Shown here piece by piece: positions 1 through 18,800 of a stretch of 24,602 nucleotides of DNA (the stretch's first letter is position 1; the number at the start of each line of letters is the position of its first letter). The stretch comes from a virus (taxonomy: Duplodnaviria; Caudoviricetes). The position numbers and the translations under genes are program-made. The notes beneath the pieces were generated by a model. It was not told the DNA's origin. It was given only the letters and a program-made list of their open reading frames with translations, and searched no databases. The stretch is taken from positions 1 through 24,602 of IMG/VR virus record IMGVR_UViG_3300022178_000749; one strand, 5' to 3'.

Positions 1-473
1 AATTCGTTACCTTCTTCAATTTCACTATCATCAGTTTCATTGATTTCGTAATACTTTCCTAATGTTTCACCGATTTCATCATAAGATGATTCTAATCGTT
101 GTTGTAGTGTTGCAACTTCTCTTAAAGTTTTTTCAAATATTTTGAATGATTCATTCATTCTCTTTACGTGTCTACTAACAGTAATACCATCAAATGAACC
201 TTCAGTTTCTTTAACCATATTTTTACCAGCAACTTCTACCAACCCTCTGATTGATTCGTATACTTCAGATAACCCTTCGTTTCTATATACAGTTTCACCA
301 AATGATTTGTATGCTTTAACTGCTTCTAAGAATGCATGTTTTTGTTCTGTAGTCATCTCTGAGGATTCTTCATCTTCGTTTTCTTTAACGAATGATTTAG
401 CGTATGGGTCAGAATAAACTTTACCTAACTGTGGGTTGATAGTTTCATTCAGTAAATCTTTTAGTTTTTTCAT
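1..473 (-). CDS. Hypothetical acidic, probably prohead-associated protein (3' end outside window; absent from ORF track)
   Basis: Manual translation from ATG at 473: MKKLKDLLNETINPQLGKVYSDPYAKSFVKENEDEESSEMTTEQKHAFLEAVKAY...YYEINETDDSEIEEGNE, open to position 1. TAAGGA SD-like sequence upstream. Directly follows the prohead protease. Confidence 0.85.
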   Translation of the reverse strand, partial: MKKLKDLLNETINPQLGKVYSDPYAKSFVKENEDEESSEMTTEQKHAFLEAVKAYKSFGETVYRNEGLSEVYESIRGLVEVAGKNMVKETEGSFDGITVSRHVKRMNESFKIFEKTLREVATLQQRLESSYDEIGETLGKYYEINETDDSEIEEGNE

Positions 474-482
474 GTGATATCC

Positions 483-1100
483 TTAAATTGAACAAACACC
501 ATCTATTTCACAGATGATATCTCTTACTAATGTATTAATTTTTTTATATGATGGTGTTTTGCCTTTACCTACTACTGATTCGTTCATTGGTCTCATAAAT
601 GCACCATGTGTTGATGGATTTGAAACAAAGTCCCAGCATATCAAATCAAAGTCATCTTCCACAGTAACAGATTTACCATTACTTGCTTCTTTTACAGAAC
701 CCATACCTCTTGAAGAGATACCAACCGTACACCCTGCTTCTAAAAGCTCTTTGAGGATATTACCTGCTGGTGTTTTAAGTACTTCTACTTTACCCATTAC
801 ATCGTCACCCTTCCAATATACGTCTCTGATGATATGTGAAGTGTTTTTTAGTTCAACTACTGATGATTCTGGATGGTCTAATTCACCAAATGCTCTATTT
901 TCTTTGATTTCTCTACCTTTGTACTTATCCACTTCTCTTTCTAAGATTGAACGTGGATAAACTCTACCATTTTGGTTTTCTGCTTCCGCTCTCTGTAAAA
1001 CACCATTAACAATCAATCTACCATTGTTATCTTCCAATGATTCATTGATTTGAGTCTTACTCATTTTAAACGGAATAATATCTACTAATAGTCTACTCAT
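483..1100 (-). CDS. gp21: Prohead maturation protease, T4 gp21-like (peptidase S77 type)
   Basis: Motifs GVLQRAEAENQNGRVYP, GELDHP (His), GISSRGMGS (Ser) and DFVSNPST are typical of gp21 homologues. Lies downstream of the portal. Confidence 0.95.
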   Translation of the reverse strand: MSRLLVDIIPFKMSKTQINESLEDNNGRLIVNGVLQRAEAENQNGRVYPRSILEREVDKYKGREIKENRAFGELDHPESSVVELKNTSHIIRDVYWKGDDVMGKVEVLKTPAGNILKELLEAGCTVGISSRGMGSVKEASNGKSVTVEDDFDLICWDFVSNPSTHGAFMRPMNESVVGKGKTPSYKKINTLVRDIICEIDGVCSI

Positions 1101-2615: not shown

Positions 2616-4523
2616 CTATTTATCAAAATTCAATATGTTTTTCTCATCTAATAGTCCTGATTCTTTATTATTATCATCAGATTTGAGTGATTCAGTAATT
2701 ATCTTCTTAGTTTTTGTCTTATATTTCATTTTAGATAACATTGAATTGGTGACTTCTTTATTTAAAACTTCGTTCGCATTATACGAATGACCAGGTCTAT
2801 CCGCTTTTACTGAAATAGATTTATTTCCTAATGGGTCTCTACCAAATGGATTTTCGTCCGTTCCATAGTTACCACTTTCTTTAGGTCTACCTGCTCCTTC
2901 AAATCCACCTTCAGGTGCGCCACCTGTGTCTTCAACAGTTGGAAATCCTGCATTTGCTCCGCTATTATCATCAACTCCATCACCACTTTGTTGTAGTGTT
3001 GCTAAATCATGTGGAGTTCCGAATGATTCTCCAGTTTTGACTGGGTCATTACCTTCTGATTCGATTTGCTCATGTCTGAATCCCAATTTAATATCATTAA
3101 TAACTTTAAACTGCTCTTCTTTCCACTCATCATCTGACATATTGAAAATGTTTTTATACATCCATTCTTGTGATATCATTTTAAGGTCTTTCATATCAGA
3201 AACTAAAGATACTTTTTCAGACCAAAGGTTCGCCTTCTCTTGCTCATATATAATAGATGGTGTTGTTAACTCTAATTCAAAGTTTACTAATTCCTCATCT
3301 GTATATCCTTGTGAATATAAATGTACTACTGCAATTTTAGTTAGTTCTGAAAGAACAATCTTTTGGATTCTCTCTACCGACCTTGCAAATCTAATATCTT
3401 CTTGTGCCAATGTAGACTTACCCTCAACACCATCTTCAAATCCAATAAATGCTTTTGGAACTTTAAATGCAGCCAACATTTTATTCTTTAGATATTCAAT
3501 ATCATCAATACCGGTAAACTCCATACCACTTAATGTGTCTATCTCAGTACCACTTTGCCCACCTCTTACAGGTAAGTAATAATCCTCTAGCATATTCTGC
3601 ATATTGAATTTTAAGTTGTACTCACCAGTCGCTTCATCTACATATGGGACTTTCTTCATTTGGTCAATGATATTTGCCATGTACGAATCAACTTCTGCTG
3701 GTGGAATGTTTCCAATATCAATTTTAAAAACTCTTTTTTCAGGTGCTCTCATAATTCTATGAATAAGCATTGCATCTTCCATAAGTGTTAACTGTTTCCA
3801 AACCTTACGTGCACCTTCTAATAGTGACCGACCATATGGTAAAAAGTTTGTATCAGTTAATAATCTGAAATGTGCTACTTGAAATGATTCTAAAAACTTA
3901 GTATTGTTTCTTTGTGAAATTGCGTTTGTGTTTTGTTCTTCTATTTCAAATCTTACTGAATAAGGGTTATCTAAATCATAACCTTCTTCTCTTCTAGTTT
4001 CATATGCAGATAATGGTTGTGCGTTTACAACACCTAACTCATCATCAATATCTAAGTAAAGATAGTAATCGCCATATTTGTTCATACCCCTTACCCATGA
4101 CCATAAATTGAACTCAATATTCAATACATCGTAAAATAGGTTGTGTAGTGTTTTCTTTAATTTCTCATCAGATGATTTGATACGAAGTACATCACCCATA
4201 TCATTTTTTAGGGTAGTCTCATCTGAGTATATATCCAATATAGATGAAATAATGGAATCTTTATCCATTGCTTCATAATCAGTATATAGTTCTAATTTGT
4301 TTGAATGGTAGTTAAATCGTTCGTTGTATGTTTGCCAGTTCTTTCTTGAATTAGAACCATGTAGTCTACCATATCTATCATAATACGCAGAACCTCTGCG
4401 ATTACCATCAGACTGCATTCTTGCTGAATCGATTACTTTTATCTTATCCTTACCAACACGTCGCACAACGACTTGTGTTGAAAATAACTTAGAAAGTCGT
4501 TTGAATAATGATGTATCTGCCAT
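2616..4523 (-). CDS. gp20: Portal protein, T4 gp20-like
   Basis: Motifs EDAMLIHRIMRAPEKRVFKIDIGN, EDYYLP, GTEIDTLSG and EDIRFARSVERIQ. Lies between terminase and protease and has a low-complexity C-terminal tail. Confidence 0.95.
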   Translation of the reverse strand: MADTSLFKRLSKLFSTQVVVRRVGKDKIKVIDSARMQSDGNRRGSAYYDRYGRLHGSNSRKNWQTYNERFNYHSNKLELYTDYEAMDKDSIISSILDIYSDETTLKNDMGDVLRIKSSDEKLKKTLHNLFYDVLNIEFNLWSWVRGMNKYGDYYLYLDIDDELGVVNAQPLSAYETRREEGYDLDNPYSVRFEIEEQNTNAISQRNNTKFLESFQVAHFRLLTDTNFLPYGRSLLEGARKVWKQLTLMEDAMLIHRIMRAPEKRVFKIDIGNIPPAEVDSYMANIIDQMKKVPYVDEATGEYNLKFNMQNMLEDYYLPVRGGQSGTEIDTLSGMEFTGIDDIEYLKNKMLAAFKVPKAFIGFEDGVEGKSTLAQEDIRFARSVERIQKIVLSELTKIAVVHLYSQGYTDEELVNFELELTTPSIIYEQEKANLWSEKVSLVSDMKDLKMISQEWMYKNIFNMSDDEWKEEQFKVINDIKLGFRHEQIESEGNDPVKTGESFGTPHDLATLQQSGDGVDDNSGANAGFPTVEDTGGAPEGGFEGAGRPKESGNYGTDENPFGRDPLGNKSISVKADRPGHSYNANEVLNKEVTNSMLSKMKYKTKTKKIITESLKSDDNNKESGLLDEKNILNFDK

Positions 4524-4606: not shown

Positions 4607-6178
4607 TTACAATAACCAACTGATGTCTTCGTCACCTCTACCTGTATTTAGTTTCCAAGAATTCTTAGCAGTACTTTGTCCTGTTTTAAAAACACCCGAT
4701 TGTTTTGCTGTTGCCGATAGTGCTCTTTTACTTAATTCAATTCCTTGTTGTCTCAATTTTAATGCAGTATCTCTAACCCATAATGCAGTTGAGAATGATA
4801 TTGTTAAATCATCATTATAACCACGCTGTGCTTCTGCTCTACTACCATTCCATATGAAAGTAAAAAGTTCATCAATTAATCGTTTAGAACGGATGATTGG
4901 AACTCTCTCCCTCATATAAGTATCTAATTTTGAGATAACCAATGGACGAGTTCTACTTGTCATTGAAAATCCTGGCACCATCTGAGATTTATCTTTTAAA
5001 TCATATCCCTTTTGTAAATGAACATCATCATCGACATACCCAAATTCTTTGTATGAATAATATAAGTTTGTATAGTTTCTATCAATTGCTTCTTGAATTA
5101 CTGCCCACCCAATGTTTGCGTTTTCAATTACTAATAATGCATCATTCCATTCAGTTGCAACGTTAACTAACATTCTACCGTAATCTTTGGTATCTATTTT
5201 ACCCTTATACTCTGCGACCTGTTCCATAGATTCTACATCTATAACGTGGAACGCTGAGTAATCAACACCATCACCTCTAGCGACATCTGCTACTACAATA
5301 TAATCTCTACTGTAGTTTGGTTGCTGCCATAACCAATAGTTTCCATCAAAACCACGCTTTTCAACTGGTTCTTGTACGTGAGTTTCTTCATACCATCGTA
5401 GTAATTCACCATCAACAACTGTATAACCAGATGAAATGAAATCACAATCACATTCTTGTGCTGCCATCTTTTCACCTAATAGTTGAGTTTGTTCTTTTCT
5501 CCACTTTTCAGTTCGTTCTGGATGTACAGTCCAATGTAATTTAATTGGATTCCACCCATCACCTTGCTCACCCTTTAACCATGTCTTATGAAAGAAGTTA
5601 CCAACACCATTCGGAGTTGATAATACAATTGCCTTACCACCAGTAGATAGTGTGGATTGGGATGATGCCCATATATCGTCAATACCTTTAATGAATGCAC
5701 CCTCGTCTATAATCAACATTGATAATGCTTCAGAACGACCTGCATCACCACTAGCTGATGTTGCTTTAATTGTTGAACCATTTCGTAATCGTAAGGATAG
5801 TTTGTTATCTTCTTCGGTATCACCCCTTAACCAACTCGGTAAGTTCTCATGCATATACCTAACTTTAGTAACTAAGTTTTTAGCTACCTCTTGTTTAGTT
5901 GCAATTACCAATATGTTTTTATCTTCGTGAAATAACATCATCCATAAAGAATAACCTGCGGATAATGTTGAGATACCTAACTGACGTGATTTAAGAATTA
6001 CATTGTATCGGTGGTTGTTAAACTCACCCATAACATCTTCTTGAAACGGATACAAATCAAAAAGAATTTTACCTCTCTTTGGGTGTTGTATATAACAATA
6101 TTTCTTAAAGAAGTAAACTGGGTCTTTAGCACATTTAATATACTCTTCTCTAATGAGTTCTTTTATAGATTGTGACAT
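4607..6178 (-). CDS. terL: Terminase large subunit, T4 gp17-like
   Basis: LYPFQ adenine-binding motif, Walker A KSRQLGIST, Walker B LIIDE, coupling motif STPNG, RNase H-like nuclease motifs ADVARGDGVD and NDDL. Confidence 0.96.
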   Translation of the reverse strand: MSQSIKELIREEYIKCAKDPVYFFKKYCYIQHPKRGKILFDLYPFQEDVMGEFNNHRYNVILKSRQLGISTLSAGYSLWMMLFHEDKNILVIATKQEVAKNLVTKVRYMHENLPSWLRGDTEEDNKLSLRLRNGSTIKATSASGDAGRSEALSMLIIDEGAFIKGIDDIWASSQSTLSTGGKAIVLSTPNGVGNFFHKTWLKGEQGDGWNPIKLHWTVHPERTEKWRKEQTQLLGEKMAAQECDCDFISSGYTVVDGELLRWYEETHVQEPVEKRGFDGNYWLWQQPNYSRDYIVVADVARGDGVDYSAFHVIDVESMEQVAEYKGKIDTKDYGRMLVNVATEWNDALLVIENANIGWAVIQEAIDRNYTNLYYSYKEFGYVDDDVHLQKGYDLKDKSQMVPGFSMTSRTRPLVISKLDTYMRERVPIIRSKRLIDELFTFIWNGSRAEAQRGYNDDLTISFSTALWVRDTALKLRQQGIELSKRALSATAKQSGVFKTGQSTAKNSWKLNTGRGDEDISWLL

Positions 6179-6804: not shown

Positions 6805-7247
6805 TACTTTTTATGATGTAACTCATACACCTTATTAATCAATGCAGTCTTTGAAAGATTAGAATCTAATTTAATACCAAAGTCTTTTTTTGCTTGAAAT
6901 ATTAGTTCAACTTTTTTCATTGTTCGAAGAGAACTCTTTGTTACTTTTGTAGGTTTTTTACCTTTTCGTTTTGAACCACCTGCTGCTTTAGCCACATCAT
7001 CTATTTGGTTGATAACTTCAGATGTAGATTTTTTAACATCGTTAATTTCTTCTTTAACTCGTTTGACTCTACGCTTAACTTCTGATTTTACGGCTGAGAC
7101 ATCTTCTTTGATGTCATCTATTTTGTCCTCTACTACATCTGGAATAAAATCCCCATCTGTATCTTTTATTTTACCCATATATAGTAGTACTGAGTATATT
7201 CCCACTGCGATTACTACGATTCCTATGATAATTAATGCTATGTTCAT
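6804..7247 (-). CDS. Membrane protein with coiled coil and possible C-terminal Rho-N/HeH-like domain
   Basis: N-terminal TM helix, DTDGDFIPD motif, heptad-like region, and C-terminal LRTMKKVELIFQAKKDFGIKLDSNLSKTALINKV. TAATG coupling to the next gene. Confidence 0.7.
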   Translation of the reverse strand: MNIALIIIGIVVIAVGIYSVLLYMGKIKDTDGDFIPDVVEDKIDDIKEDVSAVKSEVKRRVKRVKEEINDVKKSTSEVINQIDDVAKAAGGSKRKGKKPTKVTKSSLRTMKKVELIFQAKKDFGIKLDSNLSKTALINKVYELHHKK

Positions 7248-7276
7248 AATTTAATGTTTTTAAATTTGTTTATAGT

Positions 7277-7285
7277 AATAAATAT
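7277..7285 (-). promoter_or_regulatory. Conserved ATATTTATT motif (candidate late promoter element)
   Basis: Intergenic, about 30 nt upstream of the ATG at 7247. Confidence 0.55.
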
Positions 7286-7308
7286 TAAATTATTTTTAAT
7301 AAACCCAA

Positions 7309-8937
7309 TTACCATTTTTTACAAGACCAGTAGTTTGCTTTCCATTTTGGGCCAGGGTTATCACAATTCATTCTTGCTCTAAATGATTTACGGGCTGCAG
7401 GATTATCTTTTTTGATTACCATTCCCTTTTGACCAAAGTTTACTTTAACAACATTACCTTTATCGTTCTTAACATAAACTTTAAATTTCTTAACATCACC
7501 TTGCATTGGCTTGTTAAGTTCTACTTTTCTACCTTGGTACTCAGCTTCTTCAATTACTTCAGAAGTATTTTCTTTCTTCATAAGTTTGAATGCCGTATTA
7601 ACCATACCAACTAAACCCATACCAACAAATTTATCTTTATTTGATTGTTGTTTTAGTGCATCATACACTTGAGTAACTACTGATGCTGAGTATAAATCAA
7701 CTCTCATCGTTTTACCACTTTTTGGGTCTTTTAATTTTTGATTTTGTTTTTTTGAAACGATATCTCTTAATTGTGAAATTATATCTGGTTCATTAGCTTC
7801 ATTCATTTTTTCTTCATCAGAACTGTGTCCGAATGTTTTATGAACTAACTTATCTAAATTTCTGTGGAATTCATCCTCTTCTTCTGGAGTTGCTTCTTTT
7901 ACTGATTCGTAAATGACCATATCTCTTTCAAATCCAGATGGTAATTCATTCCACTTTTTATCAAAATATTTCTCAGCATCGTCTGGGTCTTTAACTACGG
8001 ATAGAAGTGCATCGATTTTTTTATCATCATCCATCTTTGCCCACATTTGCTTAGTTACTTTTTTTGAACGAGCTTCAGTAACTACTGATTCATACATATC
8101 TTCAATAGTAGCACCCATATTGCCAATTGCCAGAGATACGTTTCCATCTCTCTGATATAGATAATACTTAACACCTTTTGGATTTGCTACATTTTGTAGA
8201 ATGATTCTCTCTACCTTCTGCTTACCTACTAAAGTTTTACCCTTAGTCACTTTGAATTTGGCTTCATTACCACTACTCATCGATGAGCCATACTTAATTG
8301 TAATCTCATCACCTTTTTTGAGTTTATCGTAAACCTTTAGTCGTTTTTTCATGTCCATTGATTTGGCTTCGTTTACTGATTCTTTATTTTCAGTCTTCCA
8401 ACCACCACCTGCTGCTTTGTATTTTTTAGCAGCCCATCCATTTGCGTATGCTGATGGATATACATCGAATTTCTTCTTTGCTTGAGCTTTATAGTAAGAC
8501 CATTTGGATGAATCAGTTGGAACATTCTTTTCTGTAAGTTCCATTACTCTTTCTTCTAACCCTTTTTGGTTTACTACTTTTTCAATCACATCAACGTGAC
8601 CTTGTATATATGAATGTTCTTTTTCTAACCCCATCATAGATGCCATCTTCATAATGTTCTTTGCTATATTATTAGCAACCATTACATAATCTTTTTCTGG
8701 ATTATAACCATCTCGTTGGATGTGTTCTTCTACAAAGAAAAGTGCGTCTTGTAATCTTACACTTCTTTCTGCCATATCCATATCAACACCTTTGGATTCT
8801 ATATCACCATATAGTTTTGATGCACCTGGGCAAACATGGAAATATTTTGTTTGATAGTTACCTACTTTAATTTCTTGTGGGTCGGTTTCATCTTCTGATA
8901 TTTCATTGATGTAGTTTGATATCCATTTATTATTCAT
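7309..8937 (-). CDS. Modular 542-aa protein, candidate capsid-internal polyprotein
   Basis: About seven unrelated small modules separated by LTE|K, ESVNE|A, ESVVTE|A, ESVKE|A, KMNE|A and VIEE|A. Includes basic modules YPSAYANGWAAKKYKAAGGGWK and VNFGQKG...RKSFRARMNC...ANYWSC (resembling DUF5872- and DUF6321-type phage families, from memory). AAGGA SD-like sequence. Confidence 0.8.
   Translation of the reverse strand: MNNKWISNYINEISEDETDPQEIKVGNYQTKYFHVCPGASKLYGDIESKGVDMDMAERSVRLQDALFFVEEHIQRDGYNPEKDYVMVANNIAKNIMKMASMMGLEKEHSYIQGHVDVIEKVVNQKGLEERVMELTEKNVPTDSSKWSYYKAQAKKKFDVYPSAYANGWAAKKYKAAGGGWKTENKESVNEAKSMDMKKRLKVYDKLKKGDEITIKYGSSMSSGNEAKFKVTKGKTLVGKQKVERIILQNVANPKGVKYYLYQRDGNVSLAIGNMGATIEDMYESVVTEARSKKVTKQMWAKMDDDKKIDALLSVVKDPDDAEKYFDKKWNELPSGFERDMVIYESVKEATPEEEDEFHRNLDKLVHKTFGHSSDEEKMNEANEPDIISQLRDIVSKKQNQKLKDPKSGKTMRVDLYSASVVTQVYDALKQQSNKDKFVGMGLVGMVNTAFKLMKKENTSEVIEEAEYQGRKVELNKPMQGDVKKFKVYVKNDKGNVVKVNFGQKGMVIKKDNPAARKSFRARMNCDNPGPKWKANYWSCKKW
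7892..8382 (-). repeat. Three dispersed direct repeats GAATCAGTA-N3/6-GAAGC encoding ESV(x)xEA linkers
   Basis: Plus-strand copies: gcttcttttactgattc 7892-7908, gcttcagtaactactgattc 8072-8091, gcttcgtttactgattc 8366-8382. First and third match at 16/17. Confidence 0.8.
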
Positions 8938-8945
8938 AGTATTCC

Positions 8946-9242
8946 TTAGTTTATGTAATGTGTCAATTCAAATTTACCACTATCCATACCATACAATGAT
9001 ATAGATAATCCTTTTCTCTGAGGTTTGCCGTTTTTAAGTAATCCAATTTGGAATGAATGTGTTTTACCAACACCAGGTCTTAAACGATTGTACTTACCAC
9101 CATGTGTGATTTGATTATTCCAATCATCTTCATCAATAGTAAATCCTTTTTTCTCAGCTGCGGTTTTAGCAAAATCAACGGCTTCGCCTGCTGTTTTAAA
9201 GTAATCATTATTACCTTCTAGTAATTCTTTTAATTTTATCAT
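8946..9242 (-). CDS. Hypothetical 98-aa protein with MIKLKELLE leader
   Basis: AGGAG SD-like sequence, start abuts the upstream stop, compact alpha/beta-looking domain after the leader. Confidence 0.85.
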   Translation of the reverse strand: MIKLKELLEGNNDYFKTAGEAVDFAKTAAEKKGFTIDEDDWNNQITHGGKYNRLRPGVGKTHSFQIGLLKNGKPQRKGLSISLYGMDSGKFELTHYIN

Positions 9243-9659
9243 TTATGCTCCTGTTTTGCTATTTGTAGGGGCTTTACCCTTAGTACGGTTACCACCTTTT
9301 TTGGAATCACCAGCTTTCTTTTGTGCTCTTCGTTTTCGACCTACAAAAGTTTTACGTCCAGCTGGCCCAAGTTTAGCAGCTTTCTCTTTTGATAAACAAG
9401 CTGCGTATGCTCCACCCTTCTTACCATCACCACACTTACCTAACTTCTGACCATCACTTCCGTATCTATCCCATCCACCACCTGATGTAGTACCAGTCTT
9501 TCCTTTTCCAAACCATTTGCGAAGGTCTTCGGTCATTAGGTTTTCTGAACATAAGGTTTCATACAAGTCTGATAATGCGTATTCAACACATAGAACTTCA
9601 TCTACTTTTTGAGTGTAATACTCATTAAATCTTTCTCTTAAATAACCTTTAATATCCAT
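9243..9659 (-). CDS. Hypothetical protein with acidic N-terminal part and highly basic Gly/Lys-rich C-terminal module
   Basis: Likely start is the ATG at 9659 (MDIKGYLRE, TAATG overlap with upstream stop) rather than 9689. LMTE|D precedes the module DLRKWFGKG...GGGWDRY...GKCG...ACL. Confidence 0.8.
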   Translation of the reverse strand: MDIKGYLRERFNEYYTQKVDEVLCVEYALSDLYETLCSENLMTEDLRKWFGKGKTGTTSGGGWDRYGSDGQKLGKCGDGKKGGAYAACLSKEKAAKLGPAGRKTFVGRKRRAQKKAGDSKKGGNRTKGKAPTNSKTGA

Positions 9660-9925
9660 TATTCTTCTTTTTTTCCTTTGTTTCCCCAAATCTTATCTAC
9701 AGATGCAATTCCTAATGCTCCTAATGTGATGTATAAGAATCCATCAAATACAAATTCATGTATTGGCATTTCATCACCTTTGATTCCTGTATATAAATCA
9801 ATAAGTAATGTTAATACCATCATTAAGAAAGCTAAAAAACCGATTACGGCCTTTTCATTTATTGAATTATCATCTTTAAACATTTCAGTTAATCCATTTT
9901 CAATCTTTTTGAATAATCTTTTCAT
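9659..9925 (-). CDS. Small two-TM membrane protein, holin-like candidate
   Basis: 88 aa with two hydrophobic segments (AVIGFLAFLMMVLTLLI; FVFDGFLYITLGALGIASV), charged C-terminus, AAAGGAG SD. Holin function not established. Confidence 0.65.
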   Translation of the reverse strand: MKRLFKKIENGLTEMFKDDNSINEKAVIGFLAFLMMVLTLLIDLYTGIKGDEMPIHEFVFDGFLYITLGALGIASVDKIWGNKGKKEE

Positions 9926-10505
9926 TAAGTTCTCCTTTGAGTTTTCCTATAAAGTTTTCTTTAAACTTTTCGAAACCCTCTTCAATTTGTTTCATCACTT
10001 CTTCTTCTGATAAACCATCCCACTCTTCAATAGAACCATCCTCATTTATAAATGATGCTTTAATTGTTGATTTTAAAACTTCTTTTTCTATTTCTGCTTC
10101 TTTCAACCAAGACTCAGCATTATTTAAAAGTTTTTTACGTTCATATTCATCGTACTCTCCTTTTAATTTTAAATCATGCTCCATATCAGTAACACAATCT
10201 AAACACATACCATGATATGCCTTCATCTTTAAATCAGCTTGACCTGCATCTGTACAAGTACAAACATCTTTTCTACAATTTGGAAACCCTTTCAACTCTT
10301 CTCTAAGTTTGGCGAGTTTCCCTACCTTTACTTTGTAACCTTTTCTCTGCTCCCACTCTTGACCTTTGGTATCTGTCCAAAGTTCCCCAACTTCTCTTCT
10401 TACAACTTCTTTACCATCAAATGCGATAGTTTTTTTGGTTTGGGTTTTGTGTTTACCCTCCAACATTTCACTAACTGCTTTTATGTTTTTTAATTTCTTA
10501 CTCAT
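9900..10505 (-). CDS. Hypothetical protein with Cys cluster (possible Zn binding)
   Basis: 201 aa with CRKDVCTC and HGMCLDC motifs, a Trp-containing beta-like segment and a helical acidic C-terminus. Confidence 0.8.
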   Translation of the reverse strand: MSKKLKNIKAVSEMLEGKHKTQTKKTIAFDGKEVVRREVGELWTDTKGQEWEQRKGYKVKVGKLAKLREELKGFPNCRKDVCTCTDAGQADLKMKAYHGMCLDCVTDMEHDLKLKGEYDEYERKKLLNNAESWLKEAEIEKEVLKSTIKASFINEDGSIEEWDGLSEEEVMKQIEEGFEKFKENFIGKLKGELNEKIIQKD

Positions 10506-10522
10506 AACTTATTTTTGTTTTA

Positions 10523-10531
10523 TATAAATAT
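10523..10531 (-). promoter_or_regulatory. Conserved ATATTTATA motif (candidate late promoter element)
   Basis: Intergenic, 17 nt upstream of the ATG at 10505. Confidence 0.6.
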
Positions 10532-10543
10532 TGTATTATTTAA

Positions 10544-12853
10544 TTAAAAGTACATTAAACCTAATATCTGGTTTAAACTTGCAAAAGCACCTGTAAGTTT
10601 GTAAGTATCTCCTTTGTAAACAAATACTAAACCTTCATTTGGTACAATCTTATCCTTACCACCTATTGCTGCTAATCTTTCTAACTCCATTTTAAGTTTA
10701 GTAATCTTTTCAGGACTACCCGATTTACTAACATCTTTAATCGTTTGGTCTAATCTCTTCTTCATATCTCTAACTGCCTTATCAGGATTAACTGTAAGTA
10801 CTGAACTCATAAATGATAGAACTTCTGCTCCAACACCTAAAAAGATATCTTCGAATTTTCTAGTGTTTTCTTTTGCTAACTTAGTATGGTCTTTTTTATC
10901 GATTTTCTTAGACCACTCTAATGTATCGGAATCAGTAATGTTTTTCTTATCTAATCTAAATGATTTATCATCAAACGCCCAACGTTTTACCAATCCCATT
11001 TTGGTTTTGTTATCTAATGTAGATGGTGAGTTTGAATCAACCCATTGTTCCCACCATGCTTGATGATAATCTGCTACACCATCAGAATCTTTTAATTTAA
11101 ATTCAGATTGAACTTTTTTAAGTTGTGAATTAAACCTAGATTGCATTTTGGATAGTTCTTGATTTTTAGGTAGTTGTGTTACTGGTGGGCCTTGTATTGT
11201 GTACTTATCAGTAACGTTTTTATTTATTTGTTTAATCATCCCGGCTAATATCTTAGCTGCATCGGTATTTGCTCCAATTTGAATACCGTCATCATTAAAC
11301 TCACCTGTGTTGTGGAATACTAATAGAGCTTGTCCGTAAGGAACTACGTTTACTGATGTAGGCCATATAACCTCTAAGTTCATAAATGATGAACCTTGTT
11401 TAAATATCTTATCTCGTTGAGCTGATGATAGCGATTTTATTGCATCATTTAAATCCCTCATTGCGTAATTGTATGCATCGGTTAATCCACCACGTCCACC
11501 AAATTTAGATGCCATTGCACTTATATCTAATGCGTTTTCACCTTTGTTCTTTAAGTGTCCTTTGTTTCGTGCTGCGATTAAACCTTTATCATCTCTCCAA
11601 CTAACTGCTAATGCTTGTCCATCTGTTTTTTCTCTAGCTAATTCTAACTTACCGTTTAATGCACCTCTAATGATTTGTTTTAAATCACCAAATGTTAAAT
11701 TCATTTCAATATCAAATGGATGATTCATATGTCCATATGCCCCACCTTCAGTTATTAAAGATTCTTTTAGTTCTTTAAACTTTTCCGTTTCTACATCTGA
11801 TGTATTATTAGGGTCTGATACTTTCTTTGGTTCGTTTTTAGAACTATCAGCTGCTTTTTCAGCATCTAAGAAATCTACTAAAGTATATCCAACCATTGTT
11901 GCTACTTTTGTAATATGTTTTGCCCATGTCTTATATGCAGGATTACCTTTTAAATCTGTATATCTGATTTGTCCATCCAATCCTGGTTTACCTGATGGGA
12001 AGTATGATACTGGGTATTTATCACCCAATATTCTTTCATCATCTGCATAAATTGAATCTTCATCACTACCTAAGATATAATCAACTACTTGCCAACCCAA
12101 CATTTGAGCAACATCTTCACCAACTTTTTTGTATGTTTTTGAGTTACCATATGTAAATCCAGGCCCATCATCTACTAATGATTTTCCAATTGATGAATTT
12201 TGAGATGCTTCTAAAAGTGGTTCTATATCAAATGAGTTAATGAATCTTTCCATCTTAGATTCAATCTTAAACAACTTATCACTAACCAATTTAAATATTT
12301 TTGGGTCAAACTTTCCGTATGCTTTTTTGAATCCACTCTTTCTTTGTTCTTCTGAACCTTTGGATAACCAATTTCTAACATCAGTTCCACTAATTGGATT
12401 TGATTGAGCAGGTGCTACATACACATATCCCTTATCTTCGTATCCTTTTTCAATTCTATCAGGATGGTATGGTTCAAAATATTTACCTTTTAATCTGTAT
12501 CTATCTTTTTCACCAACTACAGTTATGAATGCTGTAGTTTCTTTGTTGAACTTACCAATGATTTCGGTTGGAGCGTATGGGTTTTTGATTTGAACAATTT
12601 TGTTTGATGAGATGCCAAACATTTTTGTCATAATCATTTTCTTTTCGTTAAACTTAAATGGTGATTTGATGTTATCAGTTTTATTGGATGTACCAATATA
12701 AACATTATCTCTGCCAAATTGTTTTACCAAATGCTCGTAAGTTGCATTGTGACCTTTGTGAAATGGTTGAAATCTACCAGCGTAAACTACTACCTTTTTC
12801 TCTATACCCTCAGTTAAGATTCCCTTAACCCATTCTTTTATAAGTTTTCCCAT
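10544..12853 (-). CDS. Fusion of HxGH cytidylyltransferase-like nucleotidyltransferase, unknown middle module, and KxDG ligase-like nucleotidyltransferase domain
   Basis: N-terminal YAGRFQPFHKGH and ISGTDVR. C-terminal EKTDG, ARNK, NLEV, LLVFH, EGLVF and YKL appear in the order of ligase/capping-enzyme motifs I, Ia, III, IIIa, IV and V. Confidence 0.8.
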   Translation of the reverse strand: MGKLIKEWVKGILTEGIEKKVVVYAGRFQPFHKGHNATYEHLVKQFGRDNVYIGTSNKTDNIKSPFKFNEKKMIMTKMFGISSNKIVQIKNPYAPTEIIGKFNKETTAFITVVGEKDRYRLKGKYFEPYHPDRIEKGYEDKGYVYVAPAQSNPISGTDVRNWLSKGSEEQRKSGFKKAYGKFDPKIFKLVSDKLFKIESKMERFINSFDIEPLLEASQNSSIGKSLVDDGPGFTYGNSKTYKKVGEDVAQMLGWQVVDYILGSDEDSIYADDERILGDKYPVSYFPSGKPGLDGQIRYTDLKGNPAYKTWAKHITKVATMVGYTLVDFLDAEKAADSSKNEPKKVSDPNNTSDVETEKFKELKESLITEGGAYGHMNHPFDIEMNLTFGDLKQIIRGALNGKLELAREKTDGQALAVSWRDDKGLIAARNKGHLKNKGENALDISAMASKFGGRGGLTDAYNYAMRDLNDAIKSLSSAQRDKIFKQGSSFMNLEVIWPTSVNVVPYGQALLVFHNTGEFNDDGIQIGANTDAAKILAGMIKQINKNVTDKYTIQGPPVTQLPKNQELSKMQSRFNSQLKKVQSEFKLKDSDGVADYHQAWWEQWVDSNSPSTLDNKTKMGLVKRWAFDDKSFRLDKKNITDSDTLEWSKKIDKKDHTKLAKENTRKFEDIFLGVGAEVLSFMSSVLTVNPDKAVRDMKKRLDQTIKDVSKSGSPEKITKLKMELERLAAIGGKDKIVPNEGLVFVYKGDTYKLTGAFASLNQILGLMYF

Positions 12854-12868: not shown

Positions 12869-15800
12869 TTAATTATTAGAACCACTCTCTAAAATTTCTA
12901 TGCGATTCTGTAGAGTTTTTATTATTTGTTGTTGGTCTTGAATTGCTTTAATCATTGGTGATATAAATTCACTATACCTCAACGATAGATAGCTCCCATC
13001 ATCATCATATCCACCAAAACTATGAACACTAAACTCAGAGAGTGATTGTGATACTTCTTGAGCGATTAACCCATAATGTGTTGTATCATCATTCATATTG
13101 TATTTTACAGGTTTAAGTGAATCTATAAAACTCAATCCTAAATCTGATATTTCAATATTTGATTTTAATCGTCTATCAGAAAGTGTTGATACTGCGTCTT
13201 TTAAATATGCAGTCTTCCATCTCTTATCAGCAGTTCCTAGTGTATAGATTGATTCTGAAAGTGCACTATTGGATGATGTTGATATCGGTACAAAGTTACC
13301 TTTATGTGCTGTTGATAATTTACCATCCCATGTTAAGTATGTATCTTTAAAGTGTAATGTTTGAGTATCGATTGATATCGCTCTAACGGGTTCAACCATT
13401 CTCATTTCAGTAAGTGCCCATCCAATACCATTAACATCAGTTCCTAATGTACCAGTTGAAGATGAACCACTATAGTTCATACTTAATTTAACTTTAAACT
13501 CTTTGGCGACTGATGTGTCGGTGTTATTAGTTGCGCCTGTTGTTAAAATATCTGTGATTGGAATATCAAATACTTTCCAAGTTCTATGTGTTGCATTCTC
13601 ATCTTTATACTTTTTTGAAAAGTATGTCGTAGAACCAGATATGATGTCAACTTGATATTGTGGGAAGAAACCAGTAAATCCATCTGTATATGGATGTGTA
13701 GTTCCTCTTGCTGCAAACTGTAAATGAGTGTTTCTGTAATTGTTATTTAAAGATTCAGATATATTAATAAATTCAGAAGTTATTGTTTCTAGTACTGCGG
13801 AGCCAGTTCTTGTAAATGACGCACTATTGAAAACTAATTGAGTTCCCACTAAAGTAGGTGATAATGACGCAGACGCGTCTGATACATTAAATACATTAGT
13901 GTCATCAATAAATTTATAATCAGTTGTTAAGTCACTTATCCCATACCAACTCTTAAACTCATCTGGATAACCTACACCATCGAATGTTGAACCCGTTACT
14001 AAATACTGAGTTTGGGATTTTATAAACCCACCAAGCCTCCAATTACCATGTGACCCTGCAAATTTATCTGATGAATCTGAACCTGTAATATCTAATCTTT
14101 TATCTGTCGATGATGTTGTCCATGCTTCAATAAATGGTAATTGATATGTTAGATTTGCAACGGATGGGTGTCTTACACCAGTTTCTACTATTTTACCACC
14201 TAAGAACGTTTCTTGTATAAAACCAGTACTTGCTCTTATATCACCTTTAACTTCTAAGTTATTATTATCTAATGATAAAAGAGATGATGATATAATAAAA
14301 TTATTAGGATTCCCAAATATTCTACCATTTCGATTTTTAAATTCAAATCTATTTGCACTAATATTTAATGCAGAACCAGAAATTGTTCCACCTGAGAAAT
14401 TTACTTGAGAACCTGTGATATCCCCTTTATCATCTAAAAAGAAATTTGATGATGATAACTCACCACTACCACTAATTGTAAATGTTACTTTTTCTACAAA
14501 TGAGCCAGATTGAGTACCAGTTGATACTCTACCTTCAGAAAATTGTTTTGTAGATTCGTGTGTTACGGAGTATGAACGTCTAGTACCAGCAACTTCATCA
14601 TTTGCGGCGGTTGTTGCATATAATATTTGTAATTCAGCTAACTCTGCATTTGTTAAATCTGTTTGAACTCTAGTCGAATCTAATCTTGAAGTAATATTTA
14701 TTGCGGTGGATGCGCCAGAAGATGTTAGTGCATTGATAATCTCAGTCGAGAAAGAAGTTCCGATTGGTTGAAATGAACCACTTTCTGCAATATCCAATGG
14801 CCAAATTGCATCATATAATTTTACTTCCTTTGATATAGTGTATTTTTCTCTAACAAAGTTATTATATAAGGTTAGTGGAACTCCATGACTTGGGGTTGTA
14901 TCGTTGTCATCTGGTACAAATGTACTATGATGAGCACTACCACTTATTCCTATTTCAGCCCAGCTGTTTGGATAGGAGTTAGGATAAGCTTCAGTATTAG
15001 TATCTATACCATTTATTATTGCCTCTACAGTAGGGTGTAGTGTCCAACCTGGTTCTAAATATGCAGCATAGTAATTACTTACTGCGGTTTCACCAGGTAC
15101 ACCATAATTTAAGTTAGCACTAGGGCCAGCGCCACTATTGACGTGGGTTTGCCAATCTACTGGAGTTGAAGTAACCCCCCTAAGTGGTGCATATGATTGT
15201 GTTACGAAACTTGCAGCTTCTTCCCCACCACCTGCTAGTCTTGCATTTTGCATTTCCAGCTGACTGCCATATCCTAATGTACCTTCAGCGCCTGGGTCAA
15301 ATAGAAAAAACGATGATGAAATTGTGTTATATTCGGATGGTGTTATTGATTGACCTGAGTAAACTGTTGCGGTTGCGAGGGGTGGTAATAATTCGCTATC
15401 TGGTTGGTCTGCAACTGCTCCAAATGATGCGGTTAAAAAGAAATTATAGAAAATATTACCGGTTAGTGGTTCTCCACTTCTTTGGTCATCAACTGAAGCA
15501 CTATAAATCCAAATAAATTGTGTGGGTGGGTCGTATGCACCTGCAGACGCTTCCCAATATGCGTTTATAAAATCTTCAGTTGGGTTTGTTGAATTAGTTA
15601 AAGAACTAAAACCTTCCACAAATGAACCAGCGTTCCATACATCTTGTAATATAAATTCAGGAGGCCCGCTTTCAACATGCCAGCCACTTATATAATCTTT
15701 TGAATCTGATGATGATACTACAATTGATGTTGAAGAACCAGTTAAAGATGAAATCATTCTTAAATCTGGTTTTATAAAAAATTCCAAATCAGAATTATTA

Positions 15801-18800
15801 GCGGGAAAAAATTCAACTCGTTCGTCTAAAGAAAGTGCATTGGATGTTGCGAGACTTCCGAAAAATGGGTTTAATGCTGTTAAATCATTTGGAGCACTAT
15901 TAAACTTGGTTGGGTGAAATGCTTCTATTGCAAATGCATATAGTCCTTCTACACCACTTAAAAAGTCATCTGATGAGTATGTAGTAAACTCTCCCTCTGG
16001 CTTTCCTAAAGAGTAAAATCCACCCGAAACTGCTCCGTAAGAGCCAGTTGCAAATTTAGTAAGTATAGATTCACTAACAAATGTCACCTTACCACTATTA
16101 AAGGTAAACGACCCACTATACTCTATTTCATAATCTTCTTTTTCAGAAAATGTTGAAGTACCTAGTTGAAGGGTAGTTGCGTTAGTTCTTTCAGAAACTG
16201 CAATTCTACTAGAAGTAACGTTTGTAATTGTTATAGTGGCTCTATTGTCTACTTCTGTTGGAATACTTGGGGTACTACCATCACCAAATTCTGATGCGAT
16301 GAATGTAGCAGTTGTTCCTACAATTGGAGTAAATTCTTCTACTAATCTAAGTGCATCGAAATTAGATGATGATATGATGAAAGATGCTATTCTACCCGCT
16401 TCTGCGTAAATAGTACCATTTAAGATTGCATCACCACCTGGTTGTAAATGAAAGTTAGATGAACTAATTTCCAAATTACCATTTGAACCACTAACAAATT
16501 GAGATGCACCACCTAAGAAGAATCTATCTACTGTGATGTTTGCGTTAGAACCACTTACTAATAATTCTTTTGTTGTGTTATCCCAAACAAATTGAGCTTC
16601 AGAAGAACCACTACCTAAATAGAAGTTACCATCTGAATCTAAGTATGATGTAAAATCATCTAATGAACCATTAGAGCCTGAAATACCATCGTGGAATCCA
16701 AATACATTTGAAGTCATTAAAAGACCAGGAGATGCAATCGGGCCAACTCCGGTTAGGTTTTCATTAGCCCAAGTGAAATCTTGATTATCATCTCCTTGTG
16801 CTCCAGTTACACCCTGTCTTGCTTCTGATATTGACATTGTTTTTGCCAAACTAACACTTTCGGATGTTGCGGTTATTACAATAGAACCTGTAAATGGTGT
16901 TGTTGAATTTGTTAAGGTTACAGTATCACCAACCAATGTTGTTGTCATATGTGCTGGTGCAGTTCTACTGATTGTGTAATCATTAGTAACATCCGATGTT
17001 CCTTGAAAAACTATAATATCAGTACTTGCTCCAGTAAACGATATAACTTCATCTGATGAACTTATAGGTAAAGTATGTGAATCGTTTGTTAAGAATGCCG
17101 TAATTGCTGATACACCATCTGCTCCAGCTGCACCATTCTCACCATTAGTACCACCTTCTACTTTGAATATTTTTACAGAATCTTCCAATCCATCTTTTGT
17201 AGCGGTAATCGTAACAGGTAAATTAGATTTGGTAGAATTTAAACCGCCTGTATTTAATGCTCCACTAAATGATATACTACCACTTACAATACCAGTACCA
17301 CTACTAACATCGTTATTATCAAAATCAAAATTAGTAACATTTCCACCTGCGGTTGATATAGTAATATCACTACTACTAATTGTACCACTAAGGTTTTGTT
17401 GTTGGAAACTAAAGATAATTGATGTTGGGTCTGCCGAAGTATCTGCAGTATCATCAAATGCAAATACTTGTGAATCTAAACTACCAATCAATAATTTAGC
17501 AGATGTTCCATCAGCACCAGTTATACCTTGTTTAGATTTAACTAAACTCATTGTTTTTGATAAAGAAACACTAGCAGAGGTTGCAGTTATAATAACCGAA
17601 CCGCTATCATTTGCAAGTGCGCCGATATTCACCGTCTTTGGTGGTGCAAGTGATGAACTTACCCCAGCACCATTAGATGCTGATATTGTATAATTTGATG
17701 TTACATTTGTAACTCCCTCAAATACTTCCATATCAGTAGAACCACCAACAAAAGATACAATAGTACCATCGGTTGCTGCAGCGAATGTATGTGCTTCATT
17801 TGTAAGGAATGTAGTAACACCATCTACACCATCTGCTCCAGCTGCACCACTATCACCTAAAACGGCAATAGCCATAAACGTACTATCCCCATTACTTAAA
17901 TTGGCCCAACCATTTTTATCAATATGTGTGATATCTACCGTTCTCCAAGAACCATTATCTGTTTGGTCAGTTACATAAGCTGATTCGTAATATGATTGAT
18001 TTGCTTCTTGTCTAAATGTAATTATAGATTTGTTAGGAGTATTTGTTGATGATGTTAATTGGTTTAATAATGGTGCTACTCCCAACCCATCTAAATCTGT
18101 TTCACTTATATAAACTTCAGTAGCTGCGGCAGGGTCAGCGGCGTTAAATCTAAATTTACCCGAACCAGGGTCTGCTTCTGTTGTAGATGTAGAATACTCT
18201 ATACTAAAACCAGTAGTTGAAACACCATCAGCACCCGCTGCACCATCAGCGCCACCCTCTACTTTAAATATTGTAGTTGTATCTAATAGTGAATCTTTAG
18301 ATACTTCAATGGTTATTGGTAAATCGGATTTTGTCAATGATTCACCTGAGAATGATAAACTACCACTCAATTGACCAGAACCATTCGTAACTACCCCACC
18401 TAATGTTGGGGTTGTGATTGTACTACCACCATCTTTTGTGATAGTGATATCAGATGTCGTTATAGTACCAGTTAAGTTTTGTTGACTTATTGTAAATACA
18501 ATTGTATCGGGTGTTGCTGTTGTATCTGCTGAGTTATCGAATGCATACACTTGAGAATCAACACCAATAGATAATGCTCTTGCGGTTGATGATTCAGTTA
18601 CTGCGTTGATTGCTTCTTCAACACCAGTCCCATCCGCTAATTGGATTTGACCTCTAACTACTAATGATGTTCCATTCCAAGTAAGTCTATCACCCAATGA
18701 GAAGTTGGATGCTGAATCAATGTAGAATCCAGTGTTTAAGTTAGCCCATGTTCCATTACCATTGTAGAGTTTACCGGCTTCCATATTAATCCCACCGATA

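Follow-up and report, generated by a model that had tools for sequence, protein, structure and literature searches.

A putative cassette polyprotein with candidate head-protease sites at its joints in an uncultured T4-like aquatic phage

Can a phage load a string of unrelated small proteins into its head as a single chain and separate them there? This question is raised by a 542-amino acid (aa) protein encoded at positions 7309-8937 on the minus strand of a 24,602-nucleotide (nt) viral sequence (IMG/VR record IMGVR_UViG_3300022178_000749, positions 1 to 24,602; this whole stretch of DNA is hereafter the window). The source is an uncultured T4-like aquatic phage, and the window covers its head region. 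A first-pass annotation, made from the sequence alone, had described the open reading frame (ORF) as about seven small modules joined by linkers of the prohead-protease type. We propose that one N-terminal tag would load the whole module chain into the prohead and that maturation would release the modules as separate internal proteins. For loading by one tag, cutting in the prohead and retention with the DNA we estimate a probability of about three in four.

Cassettes exchanged at the joints

The homologue set comprised 6,704 relatives from 7,984 scored candidates, and the best 120 (346-904 aa long) were analysed; all counts out of 120 homologues refer to these. The parts of the gene are as follows (pLDDT, predicted local distance difference test).

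7309-8937, minus strand: cassette polyprotein of 542 aa, leader plus modules A to G
8893-8937, minus strand: 15-aa leader ending ISE, a candidate capsid-targeting sequence retained while relatives replace module A; role proposed by analogy with T4 (PMC9026906)
8530-8892, minus strand: module A, 121 aa, an acidic bundle of helices containing five hydrophobic-x-Glu sites; in 94/120 homologues
8368-8529, minus strand: module B, 54 aa, basic and rich in Trp and Tyr; similar to the first third of DUF5872 and to phrog_27331, and also a stand-alone gene behind a leader; in 108/120
8074-8367, minus strand: module C, 98 aa, basic, beta-rich; 500 distant clusters, usually with Glu-motif linkers on the flanks; in 87/120
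7894-8073, minus strand: module D, 60 aa, rare cassette; in 4/120, ahead of C in 2 of those
7798-7893, minus strand: module E, 32 aa, acidic, single helix; in 29/120
7546-7797, minus strand: module F, 84 aa, alpha/beta, the best-predicted portion of the full-length model, stand-alone relatives known; in 96/120
7312-7545, minus strand: module G, 78 aa, very basic, pLDDT 88 when modelled alone; weakly related to DUF5754/Tlr6F, also related to phrog_7595; terminal module in 120/120

The chain of seven modules with motif-bearing joints is a real feature of this protein. All six linker motifs stand where the first-pass annotation had placed them, with the P1 Glu at aa 136, 190, 288, 348, 380 and 464 (nt 8530, 8368, 8074, 7894, 7798 and 7546). 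Its segment lengths of 136, 54, 98, 60, 32, 84 and 78 aa also match, except that the first segment splits further into the leader (aa 1-15) and module A (aa 16-136), because relatives retain the former and replace the latter; B, C, D, E and F follow in turn, and G occupies aa 465-542. A sharp change of composition at the linkers had likewise been claimed. Net charge does change (-9, +6, +8, -1, -6, +3 and +14 from A to G), but only B, C, F and G are basic. The modules are mutually unrelated (best cross-match E=0.02). Sites of the form [ILVM][NTKSEDQ]E[AGS] occur five times in the 542-aa protein against 0.88 expected (5,000 composition shuffles, P=0.0016), and ES[VI]x1-2E[AG] three times against 0.008 expected, a count reached by 0/20,000 shuffles. 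Both patterns were picked after the joints had been seen, and a motif-blind test therefore carries more weight.

When internal alignment ends were collected blind to the motif, 321/539 fell <=6 aa from one of the six joints (15.5% expected), and most of the others sat 11-13 aa ahead of joint 1, 7-9 aa ahead of joint 2 or at an indel within module G. In homologues and locus ORFs combined, 203/226 distinct motif-blind breakpoints lie <=7 aa from [ILVM]xE (30% at random) and 124/226 at ES[VIMLT]x1-2E (8% at random). This set supersedes an earlier count of 173/342 against 19.5%, in which small indels had been included. At junctions with a foreign upstream neighbour, the P1 Glu is retained in 128/142, with a hydrophobic P3 in addition in 109.

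The homologues are not collinear over their full length. They display 36 architectures and 17 orders of the seven modules, and the full set is found in 1/120, the query protein itself. Order is mostly conserved, with D before C (2/120) and F before C (in L030 and L096) as exceptions, and the median identity of exchanged modules is 67-100%. Linker-based splitting yields 65 segment families, some of them composite; a strict linker count gives 36 module families with a median of 66 aa. Contigs from wild samples, which were aligned at 88% likeness and thus derive from related strains, differ at the same places: a single contig carries a ~240-nt extra piece at 7893-7900, others omit 7908-8397 or 7562-8362, and the module A region 8558-8894 is swapped. 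Cassettes also move between the main gene, a second polyprotein after the protease gene, and single-module genes. Modules are hence gained, lost, replaced and at times reordered at the joints, as the annotated modularity had implied; stand-alone B and G, too, are bounded by the same Glu motif.

Two further proteins carry module C. P0416 (815 aa) contains two copies of it, with repeats ending in [YF]A[DK]GG-type rather than Glu linkers: the same cassette with a different linker, perhaps for another protease. P0463 (2118 aa), also a polyprotein and a very long one, combines numerous ES[IL]DE↓A linkers (↓, candidate cut) with one copy of the module.

Joints as candidate head-protease sites

The presumed cutter and the six joints, three of which carry a DNA word considered further below, are located as follows.

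483-1100, minus strand: gp21-type prohead protease (Peptidase_S77; PF03420 E=1.7e-34, phrog_207 E=1e-52), presumed cutter
8530-8544, minus strand: joint 1, MELTE↓K, candidate cut site, DNA word absent
8367-8382, minus strand: joint 2, ESVNE↓A with the DNA word GAATCAGTAAACGAAG, candidate cut and crossover site
8074-8091, minus strand: joint 3, ESVVTE↓A, DNA word beginning GAATCAGTA
7893-7908, minus strand: joint 4, ESVKE↓A, one mismatch in the DNA word; site of cassette insertion or deletion in wild contigs
7798-7809, minus strand: joint 5, KMNE↓A, candidate cut site, DNA word absent
7546-7560, minus strand: joint 6, EVIEE↓A, candidate cut site, DNA word absent; the best-supported cut

T4 gp21 cleaves after L/I-X-E and removes targeting peptides of 10-19 aa from internal proteins (PMC9026906). 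The P3 residues of the joints are V/I/L/M, a broader choice than the T4 rule. Four tests agree in suggesting that the protease at 483-1100 would cut the joints. The first is the capsid protein of the phage itself, which reads LVKE60↓A, i.e., VKE↓A, a site of the same kind as the joints. Five other related capsid proteins have hydrophobic-x-Glu↓Ala at residue 59-66, a seventh, from Mel-JY01, was read by eye, and the mature start of T4 gp23 aligns within ~13 residues of the capsid-protein site. The second test concerns short proteins with G or B, some of which are polyprotein fragments: Glu directly precedes the module in 120/120 of the best matches with G, whose leaders are very different, and in 114/120 of the best 120 with B, behind unrelated leaders. 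Stand-alone B terminates at the same point as polyprotein B.

The third test comes from viruses that make G directly. In six small viruses (Roseobacter CRP-901; the pelagiphages HTVC026P, HTVC111P, HTVC202P and Kolga; and an archaeal spindle-shaped virus) the G protein starts with Met-Ala at precisely the predicted P1' position, so that a cut would recreate the N-terminus of directly made G. PF03420 was found in 0/5 tested small viruses with Met-Ala G and in 5/5 large phages with G inside a longer ORF after a Glu motif.

The fourth is depletion of the motif inside the modules. With module bodies delimited solely by strict ES[VI] linkers, [ILVM]xE occurs 8 times against 24.1 expected in 36 families and 12 times against 24.0 in 32 distant families, while [ILVM]xD, [ILVM]xQ, [ILVM]E and Ex[ILVM] are not depleted; [ILVM]xxE is mildly low too in one module set (16 against 23.9, P=0.034). 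Ordinary non-head genes do not avoid [ILVM]xE (618 against 536 expected). A first version of this test (8 against 24.4) was discarded as circular, since the segments had been cut at the motif. Selective avoidance is the pattern expected of proteins that meet a protease and have to survive it. In distant relatives of module C the motif lies on the two flanks in 117/135 and 107/133 against a background of 21%, often worded ESVELDE↓A. Ranked by motif density among the 206 ORFs of a 97% complete relative (G003), the scaffold-like protein comes first, the counterpart of the main gene second and the post-protease ORF third. The proposed fit of the linkers to a gp21-type protease is thus supported by the capsid site, by the Glu before stand-alone B and G and by the depletion within module bodies.

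These patterns suggest how the protein would be handled. The leader, perhaps together with the acidic module A, probably binds the prohead core, and with similarly good odds the protease would cut after [VILM]-x-Glu, in many cases making two cuts at one joint (MYE↓SVVTE↓A is an example), so that the linker is trimmed off. Module A, with its five internal sites, is the exception to the depletion and possibly represents a long, degradable core-binding propeptide like those of SPN3US (PMC5694885).

Another view is that the whole protein is a prohead core component like T4 gp22, gp67 or gp68, which is loaded, cut up and discarded, its modules providing bulk or shape only. The gene does lie within the head-gene region, T4 core proteins are cleaved at many sites (PMC5694885, PMC9026906), and module A is acidic, helical and rich in sites. 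In the T4 core proteins, however, sites occur throughout the chain and the proteins are degraded, whereas here the cut motif is selectively avoided inside module bodies, with A as the exception. The modules also keep their high identity though freely exchanged, G is predicted to fold alone and is an independent gene in viruses without an S77 protease, and a distinct acidic scaffold-like gene already sits before the capsid gene. We therefore regard a discarded core component as improbable.

A DNA word at three joints

A word at the DNA level (GAATCAGTA...GAA, 15-18 nt) is present at window joints 2, 3 and 4, with one mismatch at joint 4, and is not present in the related complete genome G004. 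The form GAATCAGTAAACGAA accounts for 29/54 linker contexts. With near-duplicates collapsed, linkers encode Ser by TCA in 48/54, Val by GTA in 47/48 and Asn by AAC in 38/45 cases, compared with 42%, 61% and 42%, respectively, in dipeptide controls. Capsid genes use AAC at 70%, TCA at 34% and GTA at 63%; expression bias could therefore account for AAC, and not for TCA or GTA. Among pairs sharing one flank, identity ends within 0-7 nt of the word in 74/74 and 64/64, pairs that are non-independent and were picked for a switch near the linker. Because three joints also carry the DNA word where crossovers fall, the place of candidate cutting is also the place of shuffling. The conserved word might alternatively be explained by shared ancestry of the linker copies in the absence of continuing selection at the DNA level.

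Integron gene-cassette arrays similarly exchange unrelated small genes at a repeated junction. Unlike in integrons, the cassettes here are fused in frame as one protein; the tyrosine recombinase family PF00589 was found in 0/5 related genomes and 14/14 controls (other recombinase families were not tested), and no hairpin was detected at the three joints folded as RNA (z-scores -1.78, 0.13 and -0.39). With neither a tyrosine recombinase nor a hairpin, short-homology recombination is the simplest reading. Crossovers at the 15-18-nt word are observed, and recombination of this kind would preserve both frame and cut site. The DNA of the capsid cut site in L084 and L085 differs from the joint-4 word of the window at one base over 17, hinting that the linker may have derived from, or may recombine with, the capsid-protein site.

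Conservation of the word at silent sites is also what one would see if the joints were flexible spacers and recombination hot spots in an uncut, beads-on-a-string polyvalent protein, with the Glu kept through the DNA word. The N4 virion RNA polymerase is an example of a polyvalent protein that is packaged unprocessed (PMC5512222). Yet the P1 Glu persists next to unrelated leaders at joints 1 and 6, which have no DNA word, Met stands in place of Glu precisely in the viruses that lack the protease, the internal depletion is specific to the cut motif, and the linkers of other lineages, worded differently, still end in hydrophobic-x-Glu. We give an uncut chain only a slim chance.

Several observations weigh against our proposal that the chain is loaded, cut at its joints and shuffled there. 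Joints 1, 5 and 6 lack the DNA word, the capsid genes likewise favour AAC, and the codon statistics overstate independence because linker copies share ancestry; the crossover pairs, which were selected, are not independent either. Module order is largely kept across homologues. Modules A, D and E are acidic or neutral and A has its five internal sites; the picture of surviving basic proteins thus does not hold for every module. In the full-length model, which is of low confidence, a helix (H105-137) spans joint 1. The leader, exchangeable and 15 aa long with ISE at its end, is no more than a candidate counterpart of the T4 targeting peptide of 10-19 aa. G works without an S77 protease in other viruses, and capsid loading by a tag is therefore not its only route. 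No module matches a Pfam, PHROG or PADLOC family of known function or a solved fold, and we found no virion proteome for this phage group in the literature.

Fate of the modules, genomic setting and known systems

The AlphaFold2 model of the full-length protein (25-row alignment) has a mean pLDDT of 49.7 and a predicted template modelling score of 0.25. Confidence is low in the linkers, but low in C, D and G too, so that module independence is neither proved nor refuted by it. Compared with BFVD, the model retrieves uncharacterised phage proteins only; against PDB, its sole matches are to generic bundles of helices and concern A (best Z 10.7, a designed protein). The model of G alone reaches a best Z of 2.5 in PDB and finds uncharacterised viral proteins only in BFVD; its profile against PDB sequences gives a best E of 0.63. 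Pfam matches to Big_8 and PLAT on C and G were at or below cut-off and inconsistent, and were rejected. Module B scores 24.9 bits against PF19197 (DUF5872; curated cut-off 27.5) over profile positions 1-39 of 116.

Module G of the window has no match to PF19058 (DUF5754) at E<=0.1. Such matches were obtained for 18/35 aligned G members (best 5.4e-05), a weak relation, and the Atlas feature score of G is 0.92 for a cluster with 46% DUF5754. DUF5754 is Tlr6F (PMC12220804), a small protein of undescribed role common to polinton-like viruses, giant viruses and phages (PMC4642659), and purified particles of one virus yielded a few sub-threshold Tlr6F peptides (bioRxiv 2022.07.28.501842). The weak profile-level and language-model likeness to Tlr6F connects G with a small protein that is found across unrelated DNA viruses and described as stand-alone, whereas its relative here is the last cassette of a polyprotein. 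Podoviruses, one siphovirus-like pelagiphage and one archaeal spindle-shaped virus carry stand-alone G genes (L109, i.e., BK067786 ORF21; L082; L105-L108), in many cases close to genes for terminase or the head. Kolga gp56 shares 78% identity with G.

What would the freed proteins do? The first-pass annotation had suggested DNA-binding or anti-defence effectors, a guess that gains no direct support: no module has a match of known function, none matches a known anti-defence protein, PADLOC matched 0/15 proteins, and A, D and E are not basic. By analogy with T4 IPI, IPII and IPIII, the freed 4-11 kDa proteins may stay associated with the DNA after packaging and accompany it into the host, a step to which we give roughly even odds. 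In the same step, the conserved basic modules B, C, F and G would most likely bind or shield DNA and the rare, variable cassettes would most likely counter host-specific defences. Ejection with host-facing roles for at least some cassettes, for which IPI is the model, is similarly balanced between yes and no.

The products might instead be purely internal and structural, acting as counter-ions or condensing agents for DNA without a role in the host, while shuffling is close to neutral. This explanation shares exchange, crossover, loading and cutting with the one we favour and departs only at the final step. It would suit the net basic charge of 33/36 module bodies, the absence of an anti-defence match, T4 IPII and IPIII, for which no host target is known (PMC9026906), and a general DNA role of G-like Tlr6F, which is spread across very different DNA viruses and has its sub-threshold particle peptides (bioRxiv 2022.07.28.501842). 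Dozens of distinct folds and rare cassettes, however, exceed what charge neutralisation needs, T4 IPI is a precedent for a small ejected inhibitor, and the internal-protein sets of T-even phages differ between phages. We consider a purely structural fate rather unlikely.

One of the closest parallels is formed by T4 IPI, IPII, IPIII and Alt (PMC9026906, PMC5694885). A T4-type portal, an S77 protease and a gp23 capsid protein are encoded here as well, and the cargo shares a short leader ending in hydrophobic-x-Glu and a small, mostly basic and strain-variable nature. In T4, each protein has its own gene and tag, and terminal propeptides alone are removed; here, seven or more modules share one presumed tag with internal sites, and the joints double as DNA crossover points. 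No window protein matches T4 IPI, IPII, IPIII or Alt in Pfam or PHROG. With no homology and many mature products per gene, the system would work like the T4 internal-protein route without being a member of that family.

Polyvalent proteins, known from phages and conjugative elements (PMC5512222), resemble the chain as multi-domain mosaics with proposed packaging, delivery and proteolytic release, and an analogy with RNA-virus polyproteins is drawn there. They carry enzymatic and LPD domains and an embedded metallopeptidase or MuF anchor, with no linker motif described in the part of the source available, whereas the modules here are of 30-130 aa, look non-enzymatic and include no embedded peptidase, so the head protease would cut in trans. 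LPD, enzymatic conflict, metallopeptidase and MuF domains were not found over cut-off in the window protein or in 20 close and 60 distant relatives; there was one LPD5 hint (E=0.045). The giant phages SPN3US and phiKZ (PMC5694885, PMC7411985) share Glu cleavage, common N-termini on diverged cargo and long multi-site propeptides, the last being a model for leader plus module A. Their sites, by contrast, lie in discarded propeptides and not between unrelated mature proteins, their motif is A/S-X-E, and cassette shuffling is not reported in the parts of these papers available. Within an incomplete coverage of the literature we found no description of protease-site-linked cassette polyproteins in these phages, and no such arrangement appears in the available parts of PMC9503650, PMC7824862, PMC7411985, PMC12085832 and 10.64898/2026.06.19.733378.

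Other features of the window place the gene among head genes.

3-473, minus strand: start of a second cassette polyprotein with a leader ending LNE, directly after the protease gene (746 aa in a longer identical contig)
2616-4523, minus strand: T4 gp20-type portal (PF07230 E=7e-72)
4607-6178, minus strand: T4-type large terminase

A longer contig with an identical gene (G001) adds the acidic scaffold-like gene, the gp23 capsid gene and the ribosomal protein bS21. The second polyprotein occupies 16405-18645 in G001; next come a 167-aa ORF containing two linkers and a 65-aa ORF made up of a leader and a module. Modules of the second polyprotein are also found in relatives of the main gene. Neither this polyprotein nor the DNA word at three joints had been recognised in the first-pass annotation. 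The bS21 gene (PF01165 E=4e-10) lies at 19441-19698 in G001 (3242-3496 in L088), on the head-gene strand, with the cargo genes on one side and the scaffold-like gene on the other. Among cultured phages, the portals of Microcystis phage Mel-JY01 (55%) and Flavobacterium Immuto phages (51%) are nearest, and the cultured relatives with the same protease and module G are the Immuto phages, Melnitz, HTVC008M and C48C1. Phages with bS21 and a similar head region were predicted to infect Bacteroidetes (PMC9723584, where bS21 lies on the opposite strand), and a Bacteroidota host is likely by analogy. Mel-JY01 (PP395634, L112) shares the head-gene order and bS21 and has the closest portal, yet is recorded as a phage of Microcystis, which sits oddly with such a host. 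The gene is present in freshwater- and marine-labelled runs; RNA-labelled runs (6 rows) carry it as contigs, which does not demonstrate transcription. Sigma-70 promoters show no excess in 7000-10700 (7 against 16 expected).

Several neighbours on the minus strand open with short leaders ending in hydrophobic-x-Glu, namely 8946-9242 (LLE↓G), 10544-12853 (LTE↓G) and 1231-1719 (IEE↓A). The second encodes a cytidylyltransferase-like fusion, which suggests that head cargo may include enzymes. In the third, the residues after the site, ANVTG, equal those after the capsid-protein site of the Immuto phages. The product of 9243-9659 (minus strand) is acidic in its N-terminal part, which ends LMTE, and thereafter very basic and rich in Gly, Lys and Cys; it has no Pfam or PHROG match, and the gene is probably another of the leader-plus-module kind. 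A 2,941-aa tail-fibre-like protein with a C-terminal S74 chaperone/peptidase domain is encoded at 12869-21694 (minus strand).

More tentatively, and at somewhat under even odds, we suggest that a widespread clade of T4-like aquatic phages may use recombinase-free cassettes in which a 15-18-nt word is both crossover site and head-protease code. Captured mini-proteins would be taken up in frame, loaded, cut and injected, and could comprise dozens to hundreds of undescribed day-zero proteins for anti-defence or host takeover.

If loading and cutting proceed as proposed, the tag-and-trim route of T4 would extend to a genuine protease-processed polyprotein in a double-stranded DNA phage, and the reshuffling of virion cargo without the evolution of new tags or promoters would be accounted for. 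The reading rule would turn thousands of 'hypothetical' proteins (6,704 matches to the query) into lists of 4-12 kDa mature proteins with exact ends. These lists would form a pool for screening injected anti-defence factors and would provide a testable handle on the long-unexplained Tlr6F family.

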